A stretch of 64,000 bases of DNA from positions 133,683-197,682 of the IMG/VR virus record IMGVR_UViG_3300007735_000926; one strand, given 5' to 3'. Made by a program: the position numbers and the translations under genes. The DNA is from a virus. Taxonomy: Duplodnaviria > Heunggongvirae > Uroviricota > Caudoviricetes. Every line of letters starts with the position of its first letter. Position 1 is the stretch's first letter. Below, one piece after another: positions 5,903 through 43,863 of this stretch. The notes under the pieces are model-generated. The model searched no databases. It was not told the origin of the DNA and saw only the letters and a program-made list of their open reading frames with translations.

Positions 5903-6310
5903 CTTGTTTTTGACCTTGGTAGCAGTTTCGTAGATTTTCTTCAGAAGATCGTAAGAGATTTCCTGACAACCAACCTTGATATCTCCACCCTTCTTGAACT
6001 CTGCTTTGTAGCTGTCAGAAATCTTGATAGGTTCGGGCATTTGAACCTCAACCTTTTGAAGCACATAGAATGGATATGATAGACCAATATATCCATTGGA
6101 ATCTTTAAGAGTAATACCGCTTCCTTCGTTGTCACGATAAACAGTAAGCGTCTTGCCTACTTGACAATTCATTTCAGGAGTCCAACTATTGTGCCAACCA
6201 TGTTCGTGTCTTTTAGCAGTAGAAAGAACCTTAACAGAATCGCCCTCTTTGAGGTCAACCATTTTGATCCATGCTTTTTGAGCTTCGACGTATTGTTCGT
6301 ATTGGTTCAT
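5900..6310 (-). CDS. hypothetical protein
   Basis: 136 aa ORF; motif at 6318-6336. Confidence 0.5.
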   Translation of the reverse strand: MNQYEQYVEAQKAWIKMVDLKEGDSVKVLSTAKRHEHGWHNSWTPEMNCQVGKTLTVYRDNEGSGITLKDSNGYIGLSYPFYVLQKVEVQMPEPIKISDSYKAEFKKGGDIKVGCQEISYDLLKKIYETATKVKNK

Positions 6311-6337
6311 GTCGTAATTGTATTGTAGTTTTTTAAT

Positions 6338-6829
6338 TCAGGCGAAAACGGATGCGTAAATCTCAGTTCCGAAAGTGGTGAGAATATAATTCTTGCCTTC
6401 TTGCGTCAAACCATTTTCATCCCAATGTTCATCAGTGTCATGCAAGTCTTGCATTGCAGACCACACCTTGATGTGAACACCATGATACTTTTCTTGGAAC
6501 ATGCTGTCAAAACATGGATATTCATTTTTAATCTGCGTTGGAATACACTCAATACCAAACGATTGATCTTGTTCCACAGCGTGAAAAACTTTGAGAGCAT
6601 CCTCAGTAAGACAACGACCAACGGCACACATGTTACCGATATCGCTTTTATAGACACAAGCAGTTCCATAACTTGCTCGATTGCCAGAATTGTAGTGAGC
6701 AACGGTTTCTTTAACCAAAGAAACAACGGTATCGTAATTATCTTTGATTGACTGGCGCACTTCAACAAGAGTATCGGGTGTCCAGTAGCCGATAATATTC
6801 TTGGATTGGAAAGGGAGGATAGTTGCCAT
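6338..6829 (-). CDS. hypothetical protein
   Basis: 163 aa ORF; motif at 6838-6856. Confidence 0.5.
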   Translation of the reverse strand: MATILPFQSKNIIGYWTPDTLVEVRQSIKDNYDTVVSLVKETVAHYNSGNRASYGTACVYKSDIGNMCAVGRCLTEDALKVFHAVEQDQSFGIECIPTQIKNEYPCFDSMFQEKYHGVHIKVWSAMQDLHDTDEHWDENGLTQEGKNYILTTFGTEIYASVFA

Positions 6830-6860
6830 GTCGTAATTGTATTGTAGTTTTTAAATTATT

Positions 6861-7199
6861 TTAGAAATCCTGAACAATGATACCACCTTGAAATTCAATT
6901 AGTTGTGTGTGATCATTAAGATAATCTTTGATGCGCTCATCAATTTCATCATCCTCTTCATCTTCATCAACATTGATTTCATCTTTCCACGAATCACCAA
7001 AGTAATCTTGCGCCCAATCTTGAAAAGAATCGAATTCAGAATATTCAGAGCGAATTGCGACAGCATCCAATTCGATCTCCTCACCCAAATCTTCTTCCAA
7101 TTGTTCCAGATATTCAGCCAATTCTTCGGCTCCGCGATAGGAAAATCCAGCGGTGTAGAGTGCCATTTGAATTTCATGGGTGGTGAGCGTCTTTTTCAT
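6861..7199 (-). CDS. acidic hypothetical protein
   Basis: 112 aa, Asp/Glu-rich; motif at 7203-7222. Confidence 0.45.
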   Translation of the reverse strand: MKKTLTTHEIQMALYTAGFSYRGAEELAEYLEQLEEDLGEEIELDAVAIRSEYSEFDSFQDWAQDYFGDSWKDEINVDEDEEDDEIDERIKDYLNDHTQLIEFQGGIIVQDF

Positions 7200-7623: not shown

Positions 7624-7705
7624 TAGCGTTGACAGGACTCGAACCTGCATGCTGTTAAGCGACTGATTTTGAGTCAGTTGTGAATACCAATTCCACCACA
7701 ACGCC
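7624..7705 (-). tRNA. tRNA-Leu (anticodon CAA), type II with long variable arm
   Basis: Hand fold: acceptor GGCGTTG/CAACGCT, D stem GTGG/TCAC, anticodon loop CTCAAAA, variable arm, T arm GCAGG-TTCGAGT-CCTGT. Confidence 0.7.
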
Positions 7706-7715
7706 GTTTTGAGAG

Positions 7716-7789
7716 TTGTCCAGAGGGGACTCGAACCCCTGACCCGACCCTTATAAAGAATCCGCTCTAACCAACTGAGCTACTGGACG
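7716..7789 (-). tRNA. tRNA, anticodon loop TTTATAA (apparent UAU, Ile reading AUA); C1-A72 mismatch
   Basis: Cloverleaf: D arm GCTC-AGTTGGTTA-GAGC, anticodon stem GATTC/GGGTC, T arm AGGGG-TTCGAGT-CCCCT. Confidence 0.6.
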
Positions 7790-7856
7790 TTTGAATTTTA
7801 CTGTAGTTTTTATCCGATCTTTTCTTCCACCAGAGATTTACAATTAGGGGTAAGGG

Positions 7857-7945
7857 TAAGAGCGGTGGGATTCGAACCCACAACCGTTCTGGACGGATTT
7901 GACCGATTATGAGTCGGCTGGTTTAACCATTCACCTCACACTCTT
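7857..7945 (-). tRNA. type II (long variable arm) tRNA with CAU anticodon loop CTCATAA; unusual combination
   Basis: 89 nt; 3-bp D stem with long D loop, anticodon stem GCCGA/TCGGT, variable arm hairpin CCGT-CCAGAA-ACGG, T arm GTGGG-TTCGAAT-CCCAC. Confidence 0.5.
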
Positions 7946-7960
7946 ATGAAAATTAAAGTG

Positions 7961-8045
7961 TGGCCACATCGGGACTCGAACCCGAACGCCCGAAGGGGCA
8001 GCAGATTTTAAATCTGCGGTGTCTACCAAGTTCCACCACATGGCC
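7961..8045 (-). tRNA. tRNA-Leu (anticodon UAA), type II
   Basis: Anticodon stem GCAGA/TCTGC with loop TTTAAAA, variable arm GCCC-CTTC-GGGC, T arm TCGGG-TTCGAGT-CCCGA. Confidence 0.65.
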
Positions 8046-9445: not shown

Positions 9446-10207
9446 TTAGTAAACCCTCGCACCTGCTGCGATCTTGACGATCTCGCCACTCTTCAATTTG
9501 ACCACAACAGTGTCCACCGTTTTCGTGAATCCAAAGATGCGCTCAATGTCCTTGGACATGTGATAGGATGGATTGGACGAATAACCACATTGCCATTCCT
9601 CATCCAATTGCTGGCATTCTTCACGATCAAGTTCCTCACCATCACGACGACCCTCGACAATGCCGAATTCAGCCACCAGATCAACAGGAATCGAATAATC
9701 ACCTTGGTGACGAAGGAACAATGGATAAGCATAACCACCTCGCACATCGCAACCAGTGTGGGCATAGACGACCATCAGAGCATCGTCATTGTAAATCCAA
9801 TCACCACTATCCTCTTCAGCATACACTTCCCAGACATACGTTTGCGATAGATCATTCTCCCCATTGTATGTATTGTCTCTTGCAAGTTGCTGCAATCCAA
9901 GGACTTCTGTAGCGAATTTTTCTCCTGCTTCAAACCAACTCAGATCAGAATTCTCTTCTTGTGCCGCCCATGAATCAAAATTGGATTGAATTTCCGAATC
10001 GACCACACATGTTTCATCGAGGAAACGAGCAGTTTCAATCGTCGCATTGATTTCACTATTACCCCAAGTTTCAATTGAAACCATGGGAGTCTGTTCTGTG
10101 ATGGCTGGCTTGTCGTAATGACGACCGTAGTAGTCTCCACTATCAAGAAAATGTCGGCCCGTGTTGTGACGAAATGCTTTGGCGATTGTAGCGAGGTTGT
10201 CTGTCAT
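9446..10207 (-). CDS. hypothetical protein
   Basis: 253 aa acidic protein; motif at 10215-10232. Confidence 0.5.
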   Translation of the reverse strand: MTDNLATIAKAFRHNTGRHFLDSGDYYGRHYDKPAITEQTPMVSIETWGNSEINATIETARFLDETCVVDSEIQSNFDSWAAQEENSDLSWFEAGEKFATEVLGLQQLARDNTYNGENDLSQTYVWEVYAEEDSGDWIYNDDALMVVYAHTGCDVRGGYAYPLFLRHQGDYSIPVDLVAEFGIVEGRRDGEELDREECQQLDEEWQCGYSSNPSYHMSKDIERIFGFTKTVDTVVVKLKSGEIVKIAAGARVY

Positions 10208-10228
10208 GGTATTATTGTGTTCTAGTTT

Positions 10229-10471
10229 TTAATCCCGGTGGGTATACATGGATGCAAAATACACTTCAAATTTATTACCTTTTTTTCCACGAATGGATGA
10301 CCACTTGGAAACAGAGATACATTCTTTTTCATGAGTGGAAACAAAATGGTCCCTTGCTGCTTTTTTAGAGAATTCAAAAGTTTGACCATATGCTGCAACC
10401 AATTCATTATCAATTCGAACATAAGTTCGACACTTAAATGGTTGTGGTTGAATATCGGCCAAAGTTTTCAT
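10229..10471 (-). CDS. hypothetical protein
   Basis: 80 aa; TAA stop is first triplet of downstream motif. Confidence 0.4.
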   Translation of the reverse strand: MKTLADIQPQPFKCRTYVRIDNELVAAYGQTFEFSKKAARDHFVSTHEKECISVSKWSSIRGKKGNKFEVYFASMYTHRD

Positions 10472-10498
10472 GTCCGTATTGTGTTCTAGTTTTTTAAA

Positions 10499-10738
10499 TC
10501 AGTAACCATTGGCAAGTGCCCATTTTTCGATTTGAGAGACGATTTTCTCGGAGATCATTTCCTCATTACCATGAGATGTTTCGATGAAGCCCATGTCTTG
10601 AGCGATAGCTAGAGACCCTGATGCTGACGTGGCAGTGTTTTCAATGTCGCAGTATGCTCGTTGTTCACCATCTTCCTCGAAAAATTCAAGAGTCACGATG
10701 TATTTTCCGAATTGTTTTGTCAGCGTATCGTTTCGCAT
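10499..10738 (-). CDS. hypothetical protein
   Basis: 79 aa; motif at 10745-10762. Confidence 0.4.
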   Translation of the reverse strand: MRNDTLTKQFGKYIVTLEFFEEDGEQRAYCDIENTATSASGSLAIAQDMGFIETSHGNEEMISEKIVSQIEKWALANGY

Positions 10739-34283: not shown

Positions 34284-34859
34284 TTATTCTTCGGTTACGA
34301 TGGTGCGTTCAAAACTGGTCACAGCGCCAGTTGAATTAGTTTCCGAAATACGATTGTTATTTGAATCGTATTGATAGGTATACTTGCTACCATCTGGATA
34401 TGTCGCAGAAATCAGATTATTCCTTTCATCGTATTCATAGATAATCTTGTAACCACTTGAATCTCTCTTGGAAATAAGATTGTTACGTTCATCGTATTCA
34501 TAAGTATACTTGTTATCATCTGGAAATGTCTTGGAAATCAGATTATTCCTTTCATCATATTCCAACTTAGGAAATTGTGATTTCATTTCATCAGTATATT
34601 CCTCAAAGGGAACAACACGAAGCACCTTGATCTTGTCGGTAACACTTTTATTATCTTTATCAATAACAGTTCCGAGAATCTCAATTTCCAGAAGAATGAA
34701 ATTTTCAGTTGCACCGTAGTAATTCAGAGTGTCTTCCATCTTTTTACAGAAGTGGAATCCGTGGTTACACATTTCCAATTTGTTAGAGGTATAAGTTTTA
34801 CCAACACGATAAATTTGATTCCGACACTTGAAATTGTAGGTGGCTTTGTAAGCGATCAT
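34284..34859 (-). CDS. YD-repeat protein paralog
   Basis: MIAYKATYNFKCRNQIYRVGKTYTSNKLEMCNHGFHFC... then 5 YD repeats. Confidence 0.6.
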   Translation of the reverse strand: MIAYKATYNFKCRNQIYRVGKTYTSNKLEMCNHGFHFCKKMEDTLNYYGATENFILLEIEILGTVIDKDNKSVTDKIKVLRVVPFEEYTDEMKSQFPKLEYDERNNLISKTFPDDNKYTYEYDERNNLISKRDSSGYKIIYEYDERNNLISATYPDGSKYTYQYDSNNNRISETNSTGAVTSFERTIVTEE

Positions 34860-35070: not shown

Positions 35071-35550
35071 TTAGTGTATAAATGAGCGTAGTCGAAAATC
35101 AATATCTTTCAACCATTCTTCTTTGGTATAAAAGAGAGGGATATTATAACGCTCACACACAATACGAACATTACCCTGTCGCCAAAATCCATCAGGACAG
35201 CAAACAATTAACCTACCCGAATTAGCATACAATCCAAGTTCAAGAAGGCTAATAGGACTCTTTGTATTAGGGTCGAAATACATAACAATGTAGTCCGACT
35301 GATCCAACATATCAAGCTCCCAATTGACCTGTTCATCAAACTGCGGGCTATTATGGTCCCATGAACTATCCCAATCATATCGACGAGGATTGAAAAACAT
35401 CATATTGTTAGGATACCTTGCCATGAATTCATCTTGCCAATTTTCAGCCGCACCCATCTCAATACTTCCAGCAAGGAAAATAGAGGCATCTGGAAGTCGT
35501 TCATCATCAATTGTAAGCCTAATGGGAGGTTGAATTTGGAATGATTTCAT
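35071..35550 (-). CDS. nucleoside 2-deoxyribosyltransferase-like fold protein (tentative)
   Basis: SIFLAGSIEMG... flavodoxin-like start similar to NDT/Rcl family. Confidence 0.3.
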   Translation of the reverse strand: MKSFQIQPPIRLTIDDERLPDASIFLAGSIEMGAAENWQDEFMARYPNNMMFFNPRRYDWDSSWDHNSPQFDEQVNWELDMLDQSDYIVMYFDPNTKSPISLLELGLYANSGRLIVCCPDGFWRQGNVRIVCERYNIPLFYTKEEWLKDIDFRLRSFIH

Positions 35551-35562
35551 ACAATTATCAAT

Positions 35563-35916
35563 TTAGATTGGGAAATGTCCAAATCCAGAGCAAGACGTTT
35601 CAGGGAAAAGTGAATCAATCACGTTTGCTTGTTCCTTTGAAAGTTCAATCACTTCAAACAAGCTAAGAAACTCAGACATGGATCGATATTCATTTTGCTC
35701 GTTTGAGCCAAAGTAAACAGAAAAACAACAATCTTCATCATCTTCGATTTCTCTTTCTTCTTTGAATTCTTTGATAGCATTTTCCCACTCTTCAATATCT
35801 TCGAAAATCTTAAACCCGCTGACATCCATTTCATCAGCCCAATTTTCGTCAAATTTTACCAGTAGCATATTTTTTATTTTATTTTTTGTTGTAAAGGGAA
35901 AAGACCCGGATTTCAC
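35563..35916 (-). CDS. acidic hypothetical protein
   Basis: 117 aa. Confidence 0.4.
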   Translation of the reverse strand: MKSGSFPFTTKNKIKNMLLVKFDENWADEMDVSGFKIFEDIEEWENAIKEFKEEREIEDDEDCCFSVYFGSNEQNEYRSMSEFLSLFEVIELSKEQANVIDSLFPETSCSGFGHFPI

Positions 35917-36042
35917 GTTCGTTCGTTAAACATACAACCGTCCACGGTTTCAGGAATCGAACCTGTATGTTTAGTCTCTATCGGATCGTTAGACACCTAC
36001 GTATGTGTCCCTATTCTGCAATGTTATATACCATTCAGAAAA

Positions 36043-36903
36043 TTAGAAGTTCTGAGCGACCTTAGCACGAATGCCAGCGAGCGTCTGTTCCTTGGTAATC
36101 ACACCATCCTTGAACACCTGCTCAAAGGCACAATTCTTAACGTCGTCCCAAGTGGCTTGATCCTTCATAACAAAGTTACCATCCTTTTCATAGACAGCAA
36201 TCAGTCCCTTGGCACTCTTCTTGAGTCCGTCATCAGTCTTCGGGTCTTTGAAGATTTCAACACCCTGAGTCTTACCATCAACCGTCACTTCGCCATAAGT
36301 GGACTTGACAGCGAATCCGTGAGTGTCACGGGTAACGATGGCGTCCATCGTGATAGCACCCTGATAAGTGAAGCTTCCGATACCATACACAAGGTTGGTC
36401 GAAGCAAACCCCTTGGCAGCGAGACGTTCACAGATAGCGGTAGCACGATCAATGGTGATACTGTCTCCATAGATGGCTCCAATATGACTATCAAGCTGAT
36501 GGTAGCCTGTGCTAGTAGCGGTGCCGCCAAAGATTTCCCAGAGACACTGAATCATGCCCTTAACTTCAAGCTCGGTAAGTTCTTTGCCCTTCAGTTCGCC
36601 AGTTTTTTCATTGGGATCAAGTTCGTAAATTTTACCTTGATGGACGATAATTTCATCATTGGTATAACCAGTCACAATCTTAACTGGATCACCCGAGTCA
36701 GGACGAATGACAACCTTACCATCACGGGCCATGATCTTGTCCTTGAGAATAGCAGCGATACCACCATCAGGATTCACAACGTTCCAGAAGTCCCACGTAT
36801 CCGAAACGATACTCGCGATACCATCAGGGTAGGTTTCAGTAATGAGGCGTTCGAAAAGAAGGAGTTCGCCAAGGCTTTGCTTTTGAGTTGCGTTTAGTTT
36901 CAT
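36043..36903 (-). CDS. nadV: nicotinamide phosphoribosyltransferase NadV/NAMPT, C-terminal half of split gene
   Basis: VSDTWDFW, VIRPDSGDP, IYGDSI, YGIGSF, IFKDPKTDDGLKKSAKG align with NAMPT residues ~300-490; has own ATG and motif copy at 36940-36960. Confidence 0.65.
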   Translation of the reverse strand: MKLNATQKQSLGELLLFERLITETYPDGIASIVSDTWDFWNVVNPDGGIAAILKDKIMARDGKVVIRPDSGDPVKIVTGYTNDEIIVHQGKIYELDPNEKTGELKGKELTELEVKGMIQCLWEIFGGTATSTGYHQLDSHIGAIYGDSITIDRATAICERLAAKGFASTNLVYGIGSFTYQGAITMDAIVTRDTHGFAVKSTYGEVTVDGKTQGVEIFKDPKTDDGLKKSAKGLIAVYEKDGNFVMKDQATWDDVKNCAFEQVFKDGVITKEQTLAGIRAKVAQNF

Positions 36904-36989
36904 AGTGTTTGTAGTATGGGGCAGTGTTTTATATTTGAATTTATTATAACGTAGTTTTTATTGATTAAATTACAGCTTTAAGTGTAAAT

Positions 36990-37700
36990 ATGTATATGAC
37001 TGAATGTTCAGAACGACCACAAGATACCAAATCATGCACCAAATGTCAAGAAGAAAAACCATTGAACGAGTTTCCTAAGAGTTCTCGATTTAAATCTGGT
37101 TTTAATTCCCAATGCAAATATTGTTTAAATACCGCATCTAAAAAATGGAGGGATGAGAATTCCGAAGACTTCAAAAACCGACGCAAGGAGCATTATTGGA
37201 AAAATGTTGATAAAATGCGAGAAGAAAAACGTCAATATGTTGAAAGATCAAAGCCTCAAAAAATTGCTTATGATGCTGAGTATCGAAAGGCCAACAAAGA
37301 TAAGATAGCAGCTTACAAAAAGAATTGGGAATCTAAAAAGAAAGACGATCCAATTTTTAAAATCAAAAGAAATTTAAGAAGACGAGTTCACCATGCTTTG
37401 ATGGGAAGAACCAAATCGGATAATACGTTTAATCTTATTGGCTGTTCAGCAGAAGAATTTAAAGCTCACATTGAAAGTCTTTGGTTGGAAGGTATGTCTT
37501 GGGATAACTATGGACCCTCTGGATGGCACGTTGACCATATCAAAGAATGCCATACGTTTGATTTATCTGATCCAAAACAACAGAAAGAATGTTTCCATTA
37601 TTCCAACCAAAGACCTCTGTGGGCTAAAGATAATCTTAGCCGTTCACGGCCATCACATAATCGTAATATTCGTAAGACTCATCAATCTCGTCAGGGATAG
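36990..37700 (+). CDS. HNH homing endonuclease inserted between the two nadV halves
   Basis: Plus-strand ORF with N-terminal zinc-finger Cys cluster and GWHVDHIKECH HNH motif; Lys-rich. Confidence 0.6.
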   Translation: MYMTECSERPQDTKSCTKCQEEKPLNEFPKSSRFKSGFNSQCKYCLNTASKKWRDENSEDFKNRRKEHYWKNVDKMREEKRQYVERSKPQKIAYDAEYRKANKDKIAAYKKNWESKKKDDPIFKIKRNLRRRVHHALMGRTKSDNTFNLIGCSAEEFKAHIESLWLEGMSWDNYGPSGWHVDHIKECHTFDLSDPKQQKECFHYSNQRPLWAKDNLSRSRPSHNRNIRKTHQSRQG

Positions 37701-38466
37701 ATTCAATCATAACGGCAGTTCCAAGGCACATGCAACTGTGTTCGGACGCTGCAACAGACACACCAACCATTTCCTTGTCACTATCAGCATTGTAATACTC
37801 CTCAAGGAAGTCGATGGCAGGAAGCGTATCAGTTCCGACAAAGCTAAGAAGGTGAGCAGCACCACTCATGGTAGCAGCTTCAAGACCCATCATACCACGG
37901 AAAGAGAAATCGTGTCCTTGGAATTGGACGAAATCAATCATTTCAGGATTGGTCTTCTTAGCCCACTCATTAAGAATCCTACGATAAATAAGAGCGGTCG
38001 TTGCACTGGTGCTACAAGCCCAAGTCGAGCAAGACAGAATGGTTTCAATGGCATTGGTAAGCCAGAAGAAACGAGCATCAGTGTTGAACACGACGAACAT
38101 TGGGACACGAAGATCAACGTTAGAACCTTCAGGCAGCGCCCAAATTTCAAGCGGAAGATAACCAAGAGCGTGAAGATCACGAATATGCTGGTCGCCAATG
38201 TTGTTGACGCCAAGGTAATTCAGAAGACGACGACCATACTTCTTGGTAACTTCATCCAAAGGACGAGAGAAGAAAGTGCGTTCCCATTCATCAAGCAGAT
38301 ACTTCTTCATGAAGTATTGCAGACCAAAACTGATCACCTTATTGATTCCCTTGACGCGAGTGCCGCGTGCAGTGAGATTCGAAAAGACCAGTTCGCTATT
38401 GCTAGGATACTGGCGGCGATGGTCAACTTTGTAACCGTCTACTAAGAGTGGAGCGAGTGTATTCAT
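37636..38466 (-). CDS. nadV: nicotinamide phosphoribosyltransferase NadV/NAMPT, N-terminal half of split gene
   Basis: VDGYKVDHRRQY, FQGHDFSFRGMMGLEAA, SFVGTDT, AASEHS align with NAMPT residues ~1-285. Confidence 0.65.
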   Translation of the reverse strand: MNTLAPLLVDGYKVDHRRQYPSNSELVFSNLTARGTRVKGINKVISFGLQYFMKKYLLDEWERTFFSRPLDEVTKKYGRRLLNYLGVNNIGDQHIRDLHALGYLPLEIWALPEGSNVDLRVPMFVVFNTDARFFWLTNAIETILSCSTWACSTSATTALIYRRILNEWAKKTNPEMIDFVQFQGHDFSFRGMMGLEAATMSGAAHLLSFVGTDTLPAIDFLEEYYNADSDKEMVGVSVAASEHSCMCLGTAVMIESIPDEIDESYEYYDYVMAVNG

Positions 38467-38496
38467 AATGTTTGTTGTATTTATTGAGGTTGTTGA

Positions 38497-38531
38497 GATT
38501 ATATTGTAGTTTTTATTGAAAAAATATCAGT
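38497..38531. repeat. 35-bp direct repeat copy A (includes gene-upstream motif) flanking LAGLIDADG gene
   Basis: GATTATATTGTAGTTTTTATTGAAAAAATATCAGT, repeated at 39531-39565 with one mismatch. Confidence 0.6.
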
Positions 38532-38549
38532 CTGATACTAAATAAGATC

Positions 38550-39458
38550 ATGACCAAGCATATCAAAAAAGAGTATTCCGATGTATTGAATGAGCTTTAT
38601 CCAACTTCAATCTCAATCGATGAGATAGCCGAGAGAATGAAACTGAGTAAACATACGGTTGAAGTATATGCTAGGAAGTTGGGTTTGTCAAGACCAAAAC
38701 CTGAGCCATGGAATTCATTATCAGAAAAAGATGAGAGATTGATATTGGATATGTATGAGTATGGTGATTTTGATGAATTGTCTCAGTTGGTTGGAAGAAG
38801 TAAACACGCTATTTCAGAATGGGCTAGGAAGAGAGGTATTAAACGTCAAATCAATATCAATCGAAATGGTGATATATCTATACTTCTTAATGGTTCTTTG
38901 CAATCGTTCTATTGGTTAGGTTTATTGGCATCTGATGGATATGTCAGCAAAGATGGGCATCTCATGTTCTCACAAGGGGAAAAAGATAAAGATATCGTAG
39001 AATCATTTGCATTGTATGTCAATTCTGCTGTTTATCAATTTGAAGTTGAATCTGGTTACAATACTCAACCTAGAACACTTTATAGAGTCAATGTAAAAGA
39101 TATTAACGCTGGAAAGGAAATTAGGAATTTATGGGGGTTGGATGATGAAGATCAAAAAACATACTCAAGTATATCGTCGGAATTTTTAAAAACAAAAGAA
39201 CAAGCAATGGCATTCTTGATTGGATTCTTTGATGGGGATGGATATCTCAGACCAAATTTTGCTGGTAAAATTGAAGTTCATTCTAATTGGTTGCAATTCC
39301 TAAATGAAATCTGTAAATTAGTCGGATTGGATTACGAAGGTAAAATCAATAATCGTGGATATGCCCGAATCACAATCAAAAAATCATTTATGCTTCAATT
39401 GAAAGCTTTTATCGAATCTAACAATTTGGTCCACAATCAAAGAAAATGGAACTTATGA
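38550..39458 (+). CDS. LAGLIDADG homing endonuclease with N-terminal HTH
   Basis: Two LAGLIDADG motifs: LLASDGYV and FFDGDGYL. Confidence 0.6.
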   Translation: MTKHIKKEYSDVLNELYPTSISIDEIAERMKLSKHTVEVYARKLGLSRPKPEPWNSLSEKDERLILDMYEYGDFDELSQLVGRSKHAISEWARKRGIKRQININRNGDISILLNGSLQSFYWLGLLASDGYVSKDGHLMFSQGEKDKDIVESFALYVNSAVYQFEVESGYNTQPRTLYRVNVKDINAGKEIRNLWGLDDEDQKTYSSISSEFLKTKEQAMAFLIGFFDGDGYLRPNFAGKIEVHSNWLQFLNEICKLVGLDYEGKINNRGYARITIKKSFMLQLKAFIESNNLVHNQRKWNL

Positions 39459-39530
39459 ACGTCCACGAGTAGAGGAGCTAATGTATTCATATTTTTATTG
39501 TATTTTTGTTGTATTTACAGGAGTTGCAGT

Positions 39531-39565
39531 GATTATATCGTAGTTTTTATTGAAAAAATATCAGT
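39531..39565. repeat. 35-bp direct repeat copy B (orphan motif copy)
   Basis: GATTATATCGTAGTTTTTATTGAAAAAATATCAGT. Confidence 0.6.
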
Positions 39566-39567
39566 GT

Positions 39568-40485
39568 TTAATTGGTTGCGTAGTCGTTGTTAAGAACTTT
39601 GACGATAGCTTTGTCTTTACCTTTGAGTTCGAATTCCCACACACAATCACTATTCAGTTTAACAACGTCGGGCATGTGAGTGGCGTATTCAGCATGACTG
39701 CGGGGACTTGCTACAACGCCTTCACTCCAATGCATAACAGGTGTATAAGAACGCCATGTGCTTTTGAAAAGATCAAAGTGACAAACTGGAGAAGGATTAA
39801 CAGCATCGTGTAGATTGTCAAACACCAAAGGAAGATAACTACCAAAGTTGTTGTAAAGATTTTCAGCATTCCAAAAACCTTTGTCTTCGTTCTCAAGAAC
39901 CAAACGATTGCGAACACCAATATCGCAACGATTGAAAGCATTTCGGAAACGAATCAAATAATCCATCATGCTATCTTTAGCGGGATCAATCGAAAGATTA
40001 AGATGCAAACACATTGGTGATGAATAATTTCGAGCGCAGCCAAACATATCAAGAACATACGATTGATGATTCAGTTCTTTGATAGTCTTGGTGACAGTAT
40101 CAGGATTGAGTGATGGAAGAACATTGAATTGATCAGGATGTGACGAAATACTAACACCCAGCTTAACAGCAAGATCACCTGCATATTGCAAACGTGATTT
40201 GATTTCCTCAAAATCTGGCAGATCAAAATAAGAAAGATTGAGAGTGCTGTCAGTAATAAGGGGAAACAGATTGCTACTGATGCGATAATGCTTGATACCC
40301 ACAACAGCACAATGATGAATGATCACACCACACAAACGACTGTTGTGTAGAATCTTCTTAGAAAGATCAGCGATGGCAATATCGCGCTTCAACGAATTGA
40401 AACGAGAACGAGTCATCGTTTGAAACGCATTTGTTTTATTTTTTTCCTTGAGGATTTCGCTGATACAGACTAGGCCGATATTCAT
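39568..40485 (-). CDS. uvdE: UV DNA damage endonuclease UvdE
   Basis: RISSNLFPL, SSHPDQFNVL, RLVLENEDK, FDNLHD, HWSEGVVASPRSHAEYA align with Bacillus UvdE. Confidence 0.6.
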   Translation of the reverse strand: MNIGLVCISEILKEKNKTNAFQTMTRSRFNSLKRDIAIADLSKKILHNSRLCGVIIHHCAVVGIKHYRISSNLFPLITDSTLNLSYFDLPDFEEIKSRLQYAGDLAVKLGVSISSHPDQFNVLPSLNPDTVTKTIKELNHQSYVLDMFGCARNYSSPMCLHLNLSIDPAKDSMMDYLIRFRNAFNRCDIGVRNRLVLENEDKGFWNAENLYNNFGSYLPLVFDNLHDAVNPSPVCHFDLFKSTWRSYTPVMHWSEGVVASPRSHAEYATHMPDVVKLNSDCVWEFELKGKDKAIVKVLNNDYATN

Positions 40486-40545
40486 ATTGATTTGTTTTGG
40501 GATCGAGGATATTATAGCGTAGTTTTTATTAGTTTTCCTTTGTGC

Positions 40546-40776
40546 TCAAGCATCTTCCCAAATGATTTCCTGCAAATAACCTGTTTTGCGGAAACCGTAA
40601 CCATGCTCTTTAAGCATTTTTTCGACTGAATATGGAATAGCTGTATCAATATACGCGTAGGTTTTCCCTGCTAAAATCGCATTGTCAATTTTCCGCTCAA
40701 TGTCTTCAATTAGAATCTTATGCTTATTAAGCTGATTCTCGATTGTTTGAGCACGAGCCATAGATGCGCGTTTCAT
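40546..40776 (-). CDS. hypothetical protein
   Basis: 76 aa. Confidence 0.35.
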   Translation of the reverse strand: MKRASMARAQTIENQLNKHKILIEDIERKIDNAILAGKTYAYIDTAIPYSVEKMLKEHGYGFRKTGYLQEIIWEDA

Positions 40777-40788
40777 ATTAGTTATTTG

Positions 40789-41043
40789 TTAATACCATGA
40801 AATAATCCAAACATTAAATATATTATGCTTTAAGCAGAAGCCATTTTGTTTCAGTTTATCGATAACAAAAGTGGTGAAAACTGTGTCACATTCAACAGAA
40901 TACCGTCCACTCATTGCAGCATTCTTGATAGCAACCTCAAGAGCTAAAAGCATATTTTCATCAGCTTGTCCTTTTAGTTGTTGTGCAACTGGATTGGTTA
41001 TCTCATTAGCTTCTTTTGCAGAAATCATATTAGTTTGTTCCAT
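40789..41043 (-). CDS. hypothetical protein
   Basis: 84 aa. Confidence 0.35.
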   Translation of the reverse strand: MEQTNMISAKEANEITNPVAQQLKGQADENMLLALEVAIKNAAMSGRYSVECDTVFTTFVIDKLKQNGFCLKHNIFNVWIISWY

Positions 41044-41825
41044 TTTCTTTCCATTACTGGAATATTCATATCTAGTGTTAGATTTTTAAACTTTCGAAAA
41101 TTTTCATTTTTGTAAATCATAAGCTTAGAATACCCTCTTGATGTCATTGAAATTATCGATTCTATCTTGAAGTGTTTCTCTAAAGCTATTTTTATAGATT
41201 CTAACACTTCCATCCAAGATGAATGTAATTCAAATTTCATGGCCACTACTTTAGATTTTTGCATACAAAAACAACCATCACCATCAAACAGTCCAAAGAA
41301 AAATGATACAAACTTATCCGAATCATTTAATATTTTTAATAGGTTTGGAGGATTTATGGTTTTTGTATGACCGACTTTATACAAATTTCTCAACTGTTCA
41401 CATGTATTAACATCTGATATGGAAATCGTGACCGATTCAGTATTGTTTGCGTAAGTGGTATTCTGAATGTTGTGTTTTATTGGCTGCTCGACTTCTAAAA
41501 AGTTTCTAAATTTTATTAAGTGTCCTTCGTCTTTGGGAGAAACTGTAATTTTTATGTTATTGCGTTTCCCTATATGACCATCGGCTATTATGAAACCATG
41601 CCAATAATAGGATTCAAGACTGTCATTTAATAATTTAGATGCTTTATATTTTCGTTTGTCTATCAAACTTTTGATTTTGAATCGTCTAGCAGCCTCTTTT
41701 AGTGTAGATCGTTTAATTCCTAGTTTTTTCGCTAATTGATTTTTATCACCTAACGGATATTCATCTTTTAAAAGTTGGATTTTTTCTGGTGTCCATTGGA
41801 TTTGAGGTTTTATAAGTTGGCTCAT
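41025..41825 (-). CDS. LAGLIDADG homing endonuclease with N-terminal HTH
   Basis: FIIADGHIG and LFDGDGCF motifs; similar architecture to 38550-39458 product; AT-rich, no standard motif. Confidence 0.55.
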   Translation of the reverse strand: MSQLIKPQIQWTPEKIQLLKDEYPLGDKNQLAKKLGIKRSTLKEAARRFKIKSLIDKRKYKASKLLNDSLESYYWHGFIIADGHIGKRNNIKITVSPKDEGHLIKFRNFLEVEQPIKHNIQNTTYANNTESVTISISDVNTCEQLRNLYKVGHTKTINPPNLLKILNDSDKFVSFFFGLFDGDGCFCMQKSKVVAMKFELHSSWMEVLESIKIALEKHFKIESIISMTSRGYSKLMIYKNENFRKFKNLTLDMNIPVMERKWNKLI

Positions 41826-41855
41826 ACGTATATATTTAACGTATGAGTGGAACTT

Positions 41856-42797
41856 TTACACCGAAAACTTAAAACATGTGAAATTTCCACAATCTACCGA
41901 TTCGTCCCAATTATGTTTTGTGTTGACAGTATAAACATGGTCAAAATGCTGACACACATTCTGAACACCTTCAACCGTATCTGAATGCGCTGTAAACAGA
42001 TAAATTGGTCCCGGATTTTTTTCTTTCAATTTTTTAGCCAAACCTATAAAAGTCCCCCCTTTACAATTTACGTCATCAAAGATGATCGAAGGATTACCGC
42101 CAAGATCGTCAGCTTGAACAAAGAATCCCTTGAGCGACCCATCCTTAACGTCACGAATCTTCTCACAACGAATCATTTCAAATTCGATGAGGGGGAATTC
42201 ATTGGCCAAGTAAGTAGCGATCTTACCAACACGCTTGCCAGCGCCAGCGTCAGGACACACGATGTTGATCTTCTTGATAGAAGAATCAGATTTAATCAAA
42301 TCTGCAACGATCAGCTTTGCATAATCATGATCGTCAACGACAACAACATTGTTGAGAAGAGCAGGAGTCACTTCACTATGAGGAGTAAAGATGAACACCT
42401 TGGAGAAGTTGCAGTCATTGATAAGCTTGGCAAAGACAGCGACCGTAAGCGGTTCACCAGCATTGCAAACACGGTCTTGACGAGCAGCGGGGAAGTATGG
42501 AAGCACAAGCTGGATATTGGTAAAACCAGCCCGACGAGCAGCATCAACAGCAAGGATGATATCCATGAAATCTCCTGCACTGTTCACACGATGCGTAATG
42601 ATCAAATCACCGGGATTATCCAGTGCGATGGTGCTGGTAATTTGGAAGTGAGATTCACCACCCGGAAAAGTCAGCTTTTTGAAAGTGAGAAAGAACAAAT
42701 TGGTTTTATCAACAAAAGGACTGAACGCTTCATCAAGGTTGAGGACGAACGTTTCGTCATTTTTCTGAATCCAGTGAGTGTGTAAGTGCTGTTTCAT
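41856..42797 (-). CDS. prs: ribose-phosphate pyrophosphokinase (PRPP synthetase)
   Basis: GESHFQITSTI...DLIITHRV...ILAVDAARRAGFTNIQLVLPYFPAARQDR pattern of Prs. Confidence 0.55.
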   Translation of the reverse strand: MKQHLHTHWIQKNDETFVLNLDEAFSPFVDKTNLFFLTFKKLTFPGGESHFQITSTIALDNPGDLIITHRVNSAGDFMDIILAVDAARRAGFTNIQLVLPYFPAARQDRVCNAGEPLTVAVFAKLINDCNFSKVFIFTPHSEVTPALLNNVVVVDDHDYAKLIVADLIKSDSSIKKINIVCPDAGAGKRVGKIATYLANEFPLIEFEMIRCEKIRDVKDGSLKGFFVQADDLGGNPSIIFDDVNCKGGTFIGLAKKLKEKNPGPIYLFTAHSDTVEGVQNVCQHFDHVYTVNTKHNWDESVDCGNFTCFKFSV

Positions 42798-42824
42798 AAT
42801 GTTGCGTCATTTGTATCGTAGTTT

Positions 42825-43172
42825 TTATTCGCTAACTTGAAGCTCAAGAAAACGAACATTTTCTTCAGGCAAATCTTTAAAATATTTCAATGCTCTCTTT
42901 TCGAGATTTTTGAAAAGATTTTCAATTTCATTTTGAGTATTGGGGCAGATCGGTAAAAAATAATCTTTGCTCAAAGCTCTGGCAACTGCAATCTTGATGC
43001 CTAATTTTTTATCGAAACGATCAATCGGATTACAGAGTGAATACCCGTAGTAAACCCCATTTTCTTCTCTAACAGCAACTACAATTCCTCGTGGATTATT
43101 CTTTCGATCTCTGATGAATTGCTTAATTATATTTTTATTATCAGTGTTCATATTTTTAAAAATTACTTTCAA
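42825..43172 (-). CDS. hypothetical protein; paralog of 23926-24186
   Basis: Shared PRGIVV...LGIKIAVARA core. Confidence 0.45.
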   Translation of the reverse strand: MKVIFKNMNTDNKNIIKQFIRDRKNNPRGIVVAVREENGVYYGYSLCNPIDRFDKKLGIKIAVARALSKDYFLPICPNTQNEIENLFKNLEKRALKYFKDLPEENVRFLELQVSE

Positions 43173-43863
43173 TTAGTCTATGCTCTTTGACCTGCTCAAT
43201 GGCAAGAATCGTGGAATAACATCCGTTCATTTCAACCCAATGATAGGAATGGAAGTGACCACAGTAATGCATTTTAGCTTTTGAAAGCTTGATCAATTCA
43301 TCGTGATCAATGCGCTCTTTGTAGCAATCATTCCATAGCTCAGGATCTTTTCCACACCATCCAGCTAGTCCTTCTTTATCAAAAGGACCATTCCAAGTTG
43401 GGGCGCTATGGGTTACGAGAACATCACATTCTGTAATCAATTCAGGTTTGAGAACAAATGTCTCATCGTGCCAATAACTCTTACCGGGAACACGATACAA
43501 ACGATCAATGCTGATGGCACCACCAACAAAAAGGAATTTCTCTCCATTGAGTTCTTTGGTGGTATAATCTGGAAGCAATTCAAAATTACTCATTTTGATA
43601 CGAGAGTCGCCATTGAAATACGCGGGATCATCGTGGTTCCCCCGGATCGACATGAAGTGAATATTCTTTTTGGTAAAGTAATCATTCAAATCACCACAAG
43701 CAATCATTTCTCCATTCTGAGTATTTTTAAAACCGATACCGAGATCACCAACGCAAATCAGGTAGCAATTCTCAATACCCTGATGATGGATGAGATTCTT
43801 CAACCGACCAAATGCGCCGTGTATGTCTCCTATCAAAAGGACTGGTTTAATATAGTTGCTCAT
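43156..43863 (-). CDS. calcineurin-like metallophosphoesterase
   Basis: GDIHG, GDLGIG, RGNHD, THSAP, GHFH motifs. Confidence 0.55.
   Translation of the reverse strand: MSNYIKPVLLIGDIHGAFGRLKNLIHHQGIENCYLICVGDLGIGFKNTQNGEMIACGDLNDYFTKKNIHFMSIRGNHDDPAYFNGDSRIKMSNFELLPDYTTKELNGEKFLFVGGAISIDRLYRVPGKSYWHDETFVLKPELITECDVLVTHSAPTWNGPFDKEGLAGWCGKDPELWNDCYKERIDHDELIKLSKAKMHYCGHFHSYHWVEMNGCYSTILAIEQVKEHRLIESNF

Follow-up and report, generated by a model that had tools for sequence, protein, structure and literature searches.

A LAGLIDADG gene between two copies of the nadV promoter and gene head in a tailed-phage genome

The virus record IMGVR_UViG_3300007735_000926 of IMG/VR (Duplodnaviria; Heunggongvirae; Uroviricota; Caudoviricetes) carries, within positions 133,683 to 197,682, a LAGLIDADG gene, here termed LAG1, next to nadV, the NAMPT gene of NAD salvage. 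This stretch of 64,000 nucleotides (nt) is the window referred to below, and positions are counted from its first letter. LAG1 is flanked by a direct repeat of ~105 nt (38436–38531 and 39460–39565), each copy of which consists of a putative promoter, a leader and nt 1–31 of the nadV coding sequence with its ATG. LAG1 is probably a free-standing homing endonuclease that has both its home and its target at the 5′ end of nadV and has spread as a cassette with a promoter and a resistant nadV head, the repeat copy remote from nadV (copy B) being the decapitated promoter and head of the recipient. The relatives with which the window is compared, designated by L numbers, are metagenomic contigs throughout. 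The parts of the element are listed here in the direction of nadV transcription.

39460–39565, minus strand: copy B, the relic repeat
39552–39565, minus strand: upstream element of copy B, beginning 2 nt past the stop codon of uvdE, a UV damage endonuclease gene
39534–39551, minus strand: promoter motif of copy B
39491–39533, minus strand: leader of copy B
39490–39460, minus strand: relic nadV head of copy B (nt 1–31), 1 nt from the LAG1 stop codon
39437–39490, minus strand: relic open reading frame of 17 codons, MNTLAPLLVDVHKFHFL and stop, with 10 nadV-head codons followed by antisense sequence into the LAG1 3′ end
38550–39458, plus strand: LAG1, 302 amino acids (aa)
38525–38549, plus strand: LAG1 5′ region, with palindrome TATCAGTCTGATA at 38525–38537 and TAAATA at 38539–38544, 5 nt before the ATG
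38436–38531, minus strand: copy A, the working repeat
38518–38531, minus strand: upstream element of copy A
38500–38517, minus strand: promoter motif of copy A
38467–38499, minus strand: leader of copy A
38466–38436, minus strand: nadV nt 1–31 in copy A, with variant codons 7–9 CTC TTA GTA
37636–38466, minus strand: nadV N-terminal piece, 276 aa, with Pfam domains NAMPT_N and NAPRTase; residues 1–249 match intact NAMPT

The repeat and the LAG1 protein

The two copies are identical at 34 of 35 positions in the segments 38497–38531 and 39531–39565. The similarity extends without gaps to 64 nt at 86% (38468–38531 versus 39502–39565) and, beyond a 10-nt indel, through 44 more nt at 73% (38429–38472 versus 39453–39496). 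The gapped alignment spans −64 from the nadV ATG to nadV nt +31 with a score of 88, whereas 100 shuffled sequences scored 18.6 on average and 28 at most. A first-pass annotation of this DNA had placed the genes, the 35-nt repeat and a 27-nt palindrome, and all of these coordinates check. It had also seen further similarity upstream of the 35-nt segments, which is borne out by the larger repeat described here. Its promoter motif is indeed part of the repeat, but the repeat is not a promoter alone and includes the nadV head.

The promoter motif TATANYGTAGTTTTTATT (sense strand AATAAAAACTACRNTAYAAT) is found 16 times in the window, in a single orientation, where 0.03 copies are expected. The flank ACTGATATTTTTTC, the leader piece AATACAACAAA and the coding segment ATGAATACA...GACG are present in copies A and B only and at none of the 14 other motifs. 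Because flanks and coding head are shared by these two copies alone, the repeat is a true duplication and not a pair of consensus matches. Since nt 1–31 of the nadV coding sequence are part of it, the insertion of LAG1 lies inside nadV and is not intergenic.

Copy B has the first ten nadV codons, ATG included (MNTLAPLLVD), and then continues into sequence antisense to the 3′ end of LAG1. On the minus strand, a scan gave no terminator-like site between copies B and A. If active, the copy B promoter would transcribe the 17-codon relic and then continue antisense through LAG1 into nadV. An earlier description of copy B as having no gene to drive is right in that a full gene is lacking, but copy B is not strictly idle, as it heads this short reading frame. 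In annotation, the duplicated promoter and the 17-codon open reading frame are to be marked as relics and not as genes.

The LAG1 5′ region, with palindrome and TAAATA, is kept in L019, L021, L023 and L025. The perfect 13-nt palindrome falls exactly at the boundary of the LAG1 leader and copy A, and its right half (sense ACTGATA) alone is present in copy B and in naive relatives, those with a LAG1-less nadV. It could be a junction scar or an operator. A consensus scan for a sigma-70-type promoter on the plus strand upstream of LAG1 gave none, overall counts being equal to those of shuffles, and ACTAAATA shows no enrichment in the window.

The LAG1 protein matches Pfam LAGLIDADG_3 (PF14528) at 33.6 bits, with a cut-off of 22.5. 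Its two motifs, YWLGLLASDGY (D129) and FLIGFFDGDGY (D230), each end in a conserved acidic residue, and D129, G130, G229, D230 and G231 are invariant across 29 homologues. The ratio of nonsynonymous to synonymous substitution rates (dN/dS) is 0.07–0.11. The protein is intact, has both LAGLIDADG motifs and is subject to strong purifying selection. The AlphaFold2 model (predicted local distance difference test score, pLDDT, 88.4) displays two N-terminal helix-turn-helix (HTH) units followed by a double-motif core with the alpha-beta-beta-alpha-beta-beta-alpha fold in two copies. A Foldseek search with this model gave 32 PDB matches at E ≤ 1e-3, all of them LAGLIDADG-fold proteins and mostly homing endonucleases. 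The leading matches are I-Tsp061I (E = 2e-7), bI3 maturase, I-WcaI and I-SceI, the last (5a0m_A) with a template modelling (TM) score of 0.63 normalised by target length and a root-mean-square deviation of 3.4 Å; inteins (PI-PfuI) and WhiA are also matched, WhiA ranking far lower. Sequence and predicted fold suggest that LAG1 is a functional endonuclease.

A search of 5.8 billion proteins shows 30 LAG1 homologues with 39–100% identity, nearly all of ~250–310 aa; a tblastn search of 50,697 GenBank phage records gave no homologue. LAG1 is a separate open reading frame on the strand opposite nadV and lies outside any intron or intein. No group I intron or other Rfam family is found at E ≤ 1 in positions 35500–43000, and an intron-borne origin of LAG1, and of the HNH gene described below, was dropped for this reason.

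Homologues of LAG1 (41–100% identity) divergently adjoin nadV in all 11 readable contexts (the window, L019, L021, L023, L024, L025, L026, L027, L028, L029 and L030). The start codons of the two genes are 45 nt apart in L028 and 81–112 nt apart in the ten other contexts. The neighbours on the far side vary almost every time and include uvdE, MORN-like, 103-aa, 82-aa, 133-aa and 114-aa genes, prs and others. LAG1 is missing from ten relatives with a recognisable nadV, among them L003, L005–L011 and L016; in L003 the N-terminal half of nadV is 94% identical to that of the window.

The first-pass annotation presented uvdE as bracketed by two LAGLIDADG genes. The positions are right, but the bracketing is incidental: LAG1 is linked to nadV, and the second gene (LAG2) follows prs and is separated from uvdE by two small genes. 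The window is the only context with uvdE on the far side of LAG1, and in the close relatives with uvdE, L001 and L002, other genes come after it. A role of uvdE as the focus of both endonucleases was rejected, since neither is linked to uvdE in relatives. uvdE is a bystander with no demonstrated link to either endonuclease gene.

Relic heads, the empty site and the course of invasion

In six loci (the window, L019, L021, L023, L024 and L025), the LAG1 stop codon is adjoined by a relic that consists of the ATG and 31–41 nt of nadV and ends 1–10 nt from that codon. They form the relic-bearing clade, defined by LAG1 identity of at least 75% (the window and five relatives). The second head is found ~32 nt past the LAG1 stop in this clade and has 4–11 mismatches of 31 against the working head. 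No second nadV head is present in ten LAG1-less loci, where the best match shows 12–16 mismatches of 31, which is background. A duplicated head in relatives without the endonuclease would speak against the proposal, made earlier, that the duplication is tied to endonuclease insertion; it was sought in these ten loci and is absent, each having a single head, and the LAG1-bearing relatives at 75% identity or above all have two. Among the homologues at or below 61% identity, no relic head is found at the DNA or protein level in L026, L027 and L030, and the same comparison is ambiguous in L028 and L029. The LAG1 3′ end of L026 simply overlaps the end of prs, a plain intergenic arrangement. This arrangement of the distant homologues is plausibly ancestral.

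Comparison with relatives lacking the insert shows a near-exact empty site in L006, which has no LAG1 and an intact 531-aa nadV. The MORN-like gene upstream in L006, the promoter and nadV nt 1–33 align to the copy-B side of L004/L019, and L006 nt −18 to 731 align to the copy-A side of L004/L019 at 91%. Relative to L006, L019 has 51 nt duplicated with ~980 bp (LAG1 and its leader) inserted between. Copy B of L019 is nearly identical to the naive L006 sequence and copy A is not; for this reason copy B is taken as the resident sequence and copy A as the incoming one. A similar relation is seen for the window: L001, with which it shares the prs-LAG2-uvdE context, has a nadV upstream region that resembles the promoter and leader of copy B.

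The edges of the blocks shared between genomes fall at the relic ATG or shortly past it. L023 and L024 encode identical LAG1-family LAGLIDADG proteins. Only one long block of their DNA is shared, 2621 bp at 92%, which covers nadV, LAG1 and the relic and stops 5 nt beyond the ATG of the relic; outside it they share just 238 bp at 70%. The window and L021 are 73–98% identical (mostly 84–98%) from nadV through LAG1 and the relic and 55–62% identical beyond 39482. Because the block boundaries fall there, the relic is the edge of a unit shared between different genomic backgrounds. Shared blocks that end at the relic head may be at most an indirect sign of endonuclease-dependent, one-way transfer with co-conversion of flanks.

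Direct repeats that immediately flank LAG1 also bring to mind a classical target-site duplication made by the insertion mechanism itself, through a transposition-like event or staggered cuts. The repeat, at ~105 nt, is far longer than the 4-nt overhangs that LAGLIDADG enzymes leave. The window copies are 73–86% alike and differ in length by 10 nt, so that they are not fresh copies of each other, and the match of L019 copy B, but not copy A, to naive L006 points to two origins. The repeat length is also not fixed, being 51 nt in L019 and ~100 nt in L021. Target-site duplication is therefore very improbable, and of the earlier proposal that the duplication was created at insertion, the tie to the endonuclease stands but a cleavage-made target-site duplication does not. 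The size of the repeat fits one-sided or illegitimate double-strand break (DSB) repair or, equivalently, a cassette bringing a substitute promoter and head.

The order of events might also be reversed, with a tandem duplication of the nadV promoter and head coming first and the endonuclease landing between the copies, or the repeat might be two copies of a promoter consensus that is abundant, with its 16 occurrences, in the window. The similarity, however, reaches well outside the motif into coding sequence, no LAG1-less relative has two heads, the relic lies within 10 nt of the LAG1 stop in all six loci, and the same geometry recurs with other endonucleases and genes (see below). These explanations can hardly be credited.

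The preferred reading, a homing cassette that carries a promoter and a nadV head, would imply the following course. The ancestral order would have been upstream gene, LAG1 (reverse), nadV promoter and nadV, intergenic as in the most distant relatives. LAG1 would cut naive nadV near codons 8–13. In one invasion the recipient genome would have had a different upstream gene and no homology on the far side, and repair would have been homologous on the nadV side and completed by a microhomology join on the other (one-sided DSB repair). The product order would then be upstream gene, promoter B, head B, LAG1 (reverse), promoter A, head A and nadV, with the recipient's own promoter and decapitated head (copy B) beside the incoming LAG1, promoter and head (copy A). 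Copy A would restore nadV expression and the reading frame, and its changed codons 7–9 would protect the carrier from self-cleavage. In later transfers the cassette would spread with copy B, on the left, and nadV as two homology arms. At the junction of relic and LAG1, a short similarity is found between nadV GGTTACAAAGTTGACCAT and the LAG1 end.

A candidate recognition site emerges from the heads. The relics of the window, L019 and L021 end in the same 16 nt (CCTCTACTCGTGGACG), which the naive L006 head also has, although the synonymous divergence (dS) of LAG1 among the window, L019 and L021 is 0.5–1.2 substitutions per site. In these three genomes the working heads, which are subject to coding constraint, differ from the relic or naive sequence at 4–5 of the 9 nt of codons 7–9, which read CTC TTA GTA in the window, CTA CAA ATC in L019 and CTG TTA ATC in L021. 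The L006-type naive nadV head contains …CCTCTACTCGTGGACGGTTATAAAGTTG… / …GCACCTCTACTCGTGGACGGTTATAAAGTTGGG…. From these comparisons LAG1 is inferred to cut LAG1-less nadV near codons 8–13, within CCTCTACTCGTGGACGGTTAYAAAG. A non-coding relic that is more strongly conserved than its coding twin would be expected if relics are snapshots of cleavable alleles or are retained as homology arms, and the differences in the working heads would be expected of immunity changes. In this way a 25-bp candidate for the recognition site of an uncharacterised LAGLIDADG family is obtained, with possible use as a new meganuclease scaffold, and it suggests the rule that recognition sites be read from relics in metagenomes. 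Two 18-nt patterns were searched against viral contigs; one matched the L019 contig alone and the other the L019 and L006 contigs. A 22-nt pattern gave nothing in Joint Genome Institute (JGI) metagenomes.

The main rival is that LAG1 is a domesticated LAGLIDADG/HTH DNA-binding regulator of nadV, WhiA-like or maturase-like, with the duplication an unrelated leftover. The divergent geometry of regulator and target holds down to 41% identity, LAG1 has two N-terminal HTH units and is under strong purifying selection, and the palindrome TATCAGTCTGATA is conserved between LAG1 and the nadV promoter. Some homologues carry the JGI label WhiA, WhiA is among the fold matches, and T4 intron endonucleases also act as autorepressors (PMC2988022). 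Against this, the acidic residues that end both motifs are invariant in the 29 homologues, as for an active nuclease, and active endonucleases head the list of fold matches, well above WhiA. LAG1 is also patchily present among near-identical nadV genes (L003, at 94%, has no LAG1), the relic head lies exactly at the LAG1 end, and an empty site exists. A regulator of nadV is disfavoured and in our judgment unlikely, and a dual role for LAG1 is possible.

Several points weigh against the homing cassette. The block is old in places (92% between L023 and L024; dS of ~1 between the window and L019), and vertical descent with reshuffling of neighbours could give the same block boundaries without recent homing. 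The promoters of copies A and B are both putative. One naive allele and three cassettes are the basis of the conserved half-site, the relics of L023 and L025, whose nadV is of the MKLKPHL type, resemble each other far less, and some LAG1-less heads (L005) resemble the 'resistant' heads. The L006 contig is the only exact-site naive allele found in viral contigs. Comparison of sequences is the source of the proposed recognition site and cut position and of the supposed immunity of copy A.

Other endonuclease genes and the surrounding region

The same design appears with other endonucleases. The segment 9226–10755 of L021 contains a third LAGLIDADG gene (9987–10694, plus strand; 235 aa; Pfam 26.4 bits), divergent from a metallophosphoesterase gene and followed by a 60-nt relic of the phosphoesterase gene head. 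This relic matches the intact homologue in the window (43156–43863) at 52 of 62 nt, with 20 encoded residues identical, and the phosphoesterase head in use in L021 is quite different. The phosphoesterase gene of the window, an uninterrupted allele, is likely the target of the L021 enzyme, to judge by the relic. In L005 and L006 a GIY-YIG/NUMOD3 gene follows nadV on the opposite strand (L006 2050–2995; L005 about 5930–6890), and the native nadV 3′ end (32 codons) lies as a relic beyond it, 88% identical to the real end of L004. This arrangement is the mirror image of that of LAG1.

nadV is interrupted by an HNH gene in both the window and L019, and the break maps between residues 249 and 254 of intact NAMPT. 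The N-terminal piece gains a 27-aa tail, and the C-terminal piece has a 12-aa head and its own promoter motif. Both pieces show dN/dS of 0.15–0.20, that is, purifying selection. No flanking duplication is found around the HNH insert. A split intein at the break was considered and dropped, the extra tail and head being too short. Thus three endonuclease classes are found at nadV in one phage group, LAGLIDADG at the 5′ end, HNH in the middle and GIY-YIG at the 3′ end. nadV is a hotspot, and this helps to explain the mosaic inheritance of auxiliary metabolic genes.

A general, undescribed class of 'terminus-replacement' homing cassettes may exist, a proposal that we regard as tentative and on balance somewhat doubtful. 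Such a cassette would consist of an endonuclease, an outward promoter and re-coded first (or last) codons and would invade coding sequence without an intron or intein, the native head being kept as a homology arm and possibly as an antisense promoter that silences the endonuclease until late. If the class is real, relic heads would be natural read-outs of half-sites, and recognition sequences would be predictable from metagenomes alone.

The neighbouring features of the window are as follows.

42797–41856, minus strand: prs
41821–41847, minus strand: hairpin at the LAG2 start codon, with a 9-bp stem and a 9-nt loop that contains TAAATA
41025–41825, minus strand: LAG2, second LAGLIDADG endonuclease gene, 266 aa, LAGLIDADG_3 at 49.8 bits
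41043–40789 and 40776–40546, minus strand: two small genes between LAG2 and uvdE
40513–40530, minus strand: promoter motif upstream of uvdE
39568–40485, minus strand: uvdE, UV damage endonuclease (PF03851, E = 1.5e-30)
36990–37700, plus strand: HNH-type endonuclease gene splitting nadV (PHROG 1035/2340/2255 endonuclease families)
36945–36962, minus strand: promoter motif for the nadV C-terminal piece, back-to-back with the HNH gene
36043–36903, minus strand: nadV C-terminal piece, 286 aa; residues 13–286 match intact NAMPT from residue 254

Nearly all genes of the window are on the minus strand, and LAG1 is antisense to all neighbouring phage genes. In the order of minus-strand transcription, from right to left, the region reads prs, LAG2, the two small genes, a promoter motif, uvdE, copy B, LAG1 (plus strand), copy A, the nadV N-terminal piece, the HNH gene (plus strand), a promoter motif and the nadV C-terminal piece. 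The PF03851 match of UvdE covers residues 3–268 of 305, and its dN/dS against L002 is 0.17. A megablast search of 36000–43000 against 50,697 GenBank phages gave no match; the closest match to the RNA ligase gene is only 37% identical, and no cultured relative was found.

LAG2 has the motifs GFIIADGH and GLFDGDGC and a Pfam score well over the LAGLIDADG_3 cut-off of 22.5 bits. A multiple alignment puts its identity to LAG1 at 26%, and the best local tblastn match at 29%. The gene is on the sense strand, directly follows prs, is flanked on its other side by an 84-aa gene and shares 19 nt with the gene after it. A copy 95% identical is found in the same position in L001/L031, with dN/dS of 0.17. 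Nothing convincing was found in a search for a flanking duplication or an altered prs tail around LAG2. The palindrome CTCATACGT-ATATATTTA-ACGTATGAG, which had been described as preceding the second endonuclease, is at the position given for it (41821–41847) but contains the LAG2 start codon (41823–41825), the AUG being within the 3′ arm of the 9-bp stem. The RNA fold has z = −3.5, and 0 of 200 shuffles fold as well. In L031 a compensatory double change from U-A to C-G keeps the pairing and changes codon 2 from Ser to Gly. One covariation between two sequences is suggestive of a translational control hairpin.

Sites of the promoter motif in the window include 110, 692, 5887, 7208, 8679, 9205, 9429 and 17096. 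In 9 of 16 cases an ATG is found exactly 8 nt after the motif, and at the motif at 7797 the 5′ end of tRNA-Ile (7715–7789) lies at the same distance within 1 nt. The 8-nt spacing suggests many leaderless mRNAs. For the five motifs in the endonuclease-rich region 36.9–42.8 kb, there are 14–43 nt between motif and ATG. TAAATA is found 5–7 nt before the start of the HNH gene (second ATG; 36985), of LAG1 (38539) and of LAG2, where it is in the hairpin loop. The HNH gene and LAG1 are the only plus-strand open reading frames judged real, and they account for two of the four plus-strand TAAATA start matches in 64 kb. TAAATA is also kept before the LAG1 homologues in L019, L021, L023 and L025. TAAATA-N5-7-ATG may be a shared, perhaps late, leaderless start signal.

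Four tRNA genes (Leu-CAA, Ile-TAT, Met-CAT and Leu-TAA) are found on the minus strand at 7624–8045. The window also contains a repeat-rich gene at 34284–34859, of which L002, L004, L005 and L010 have several tandem, diverged copies. Two families are seen, one with MORN-like YTFEYDxxNN repeats and one with GPA.E..DG..W repeats, and these genes are often the variable neighbour of the nadV cassette. In L025 (3726–5269) a NADAR-domain gene appears split into open reading frames of 47 and 162 aa by an opposite-strand DUF723 open reading frame of 325 aa, which is probably another endonuclease insertion.

Comparison with known systems

Residues ~105–302 of LAG1 share the fold of I-SceI, I-Tsp061I and I-WcaI, with both catalytic motifs. 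The identity is only 13–16%, LAG1 has an additional N-terminal HTH pair of ~100 residues, and it is free-standing where these enzymes are encoded in introns or inteins.

The proposed repair has a laboratory counterpart. In homing of the T4 td intron, Parker, Belisle and Belfort reportedly found in 1999 that homology on one side with a microhomology join on the other gave ectopic insertion with a duplication. That case concerns an intron in the laboratory, whereas the nadV arrangement would be a natural product, fixed and since propagated, of an event that is inferred. One-sided illegitimate DSB repair occurs during T4 homing (PMC2988022).

The free-standing seg and mob genes of T4 (SegF, SegG, MobE), which show 'intronless homing', resemble LAG1 in lying outside an intron or intein beside the presumed target gene. 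They are likewise patchy among relatives and co-inherited with flanking DNA, and the element is associated with promoters of the gene downstream (PMC2988022). In function the LAG1 cassette would be a case of intronless homing of this kind. RNA hairpins that occlude translation starts, to which that of LAG2 may be compared, are known for T4 I-TevI, segB and Aeh1 mobE (PMC2988022). The T4 set consists of GIY-YIG and HNH enzymes only, and LAGLIDADG is not mentioned in that review (PMC2988022). LAG1 differs in being a LAGLIDADG protein with two N-terminal HTH units, in being antisense to the whole transcription unit, and in an insertion inside coding sequence that is rendered harmless by the duplicated promoter and gene head.

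The split of nadV by the HNH gene, which concerns the element neighbouring LAG1 and not LAG1 itself, is similar to that of Aeh1 nrdA by mobE ('genes in pieces', PMC3045599). In the window the pieces are started separately, each has a short extra tail or head, and purifying selection is seen. Here the gene encodes NAMPT and the HNH gene is on the opposite strand.

In fungal mitochondria, endonuclease open reading frames known as mORFs bring a foreign gene end and leave the native end beyond as a relic (PMC3630166). Such 'gene hybrids' are described for Allomyces atp6 and for Glomus atp6, atp9, cox2 and nad3, and the relic ends are nearer to uninvaded relatives than the imported ends are (PMC3630166). 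L019 copy B compared with L006 and the GIY-YIG gene at the nadV 3′ end of L005 and L006 show exactly this pattern, and the phosphoesterase relic of L021 fits it as well. An imported gene end in use on one side of the endonuclease gene and a native end left as a relic on the other are seen at the nadV 5′ end in the window, L019, L021 and L023–L025, at the nadV 3′ end in L005 and L006, and at the phosphoesterase gene head in L021. The fungal examples duplicate the C-terminal end, usually with the open reading frame in phase with the gene, whereas the window duplicates the 5′ end and promoter, has the endonuclease on the opposite strand and belongs to a phage.

Spare gene ends of this kind are known from fungal mitochondria, and literature searches gave no phage report of the arrangement. 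By bringing a spare promoter and gene start, or a gene end in the mirror form, the element would let a homing endonuclease gene occupy a phage protein gene harmlessly, as a third route next to introns and inteins. In architecture, the fungal mitochondrial 'gene hybrid' is the closest precedent for LAG1 at nadV.

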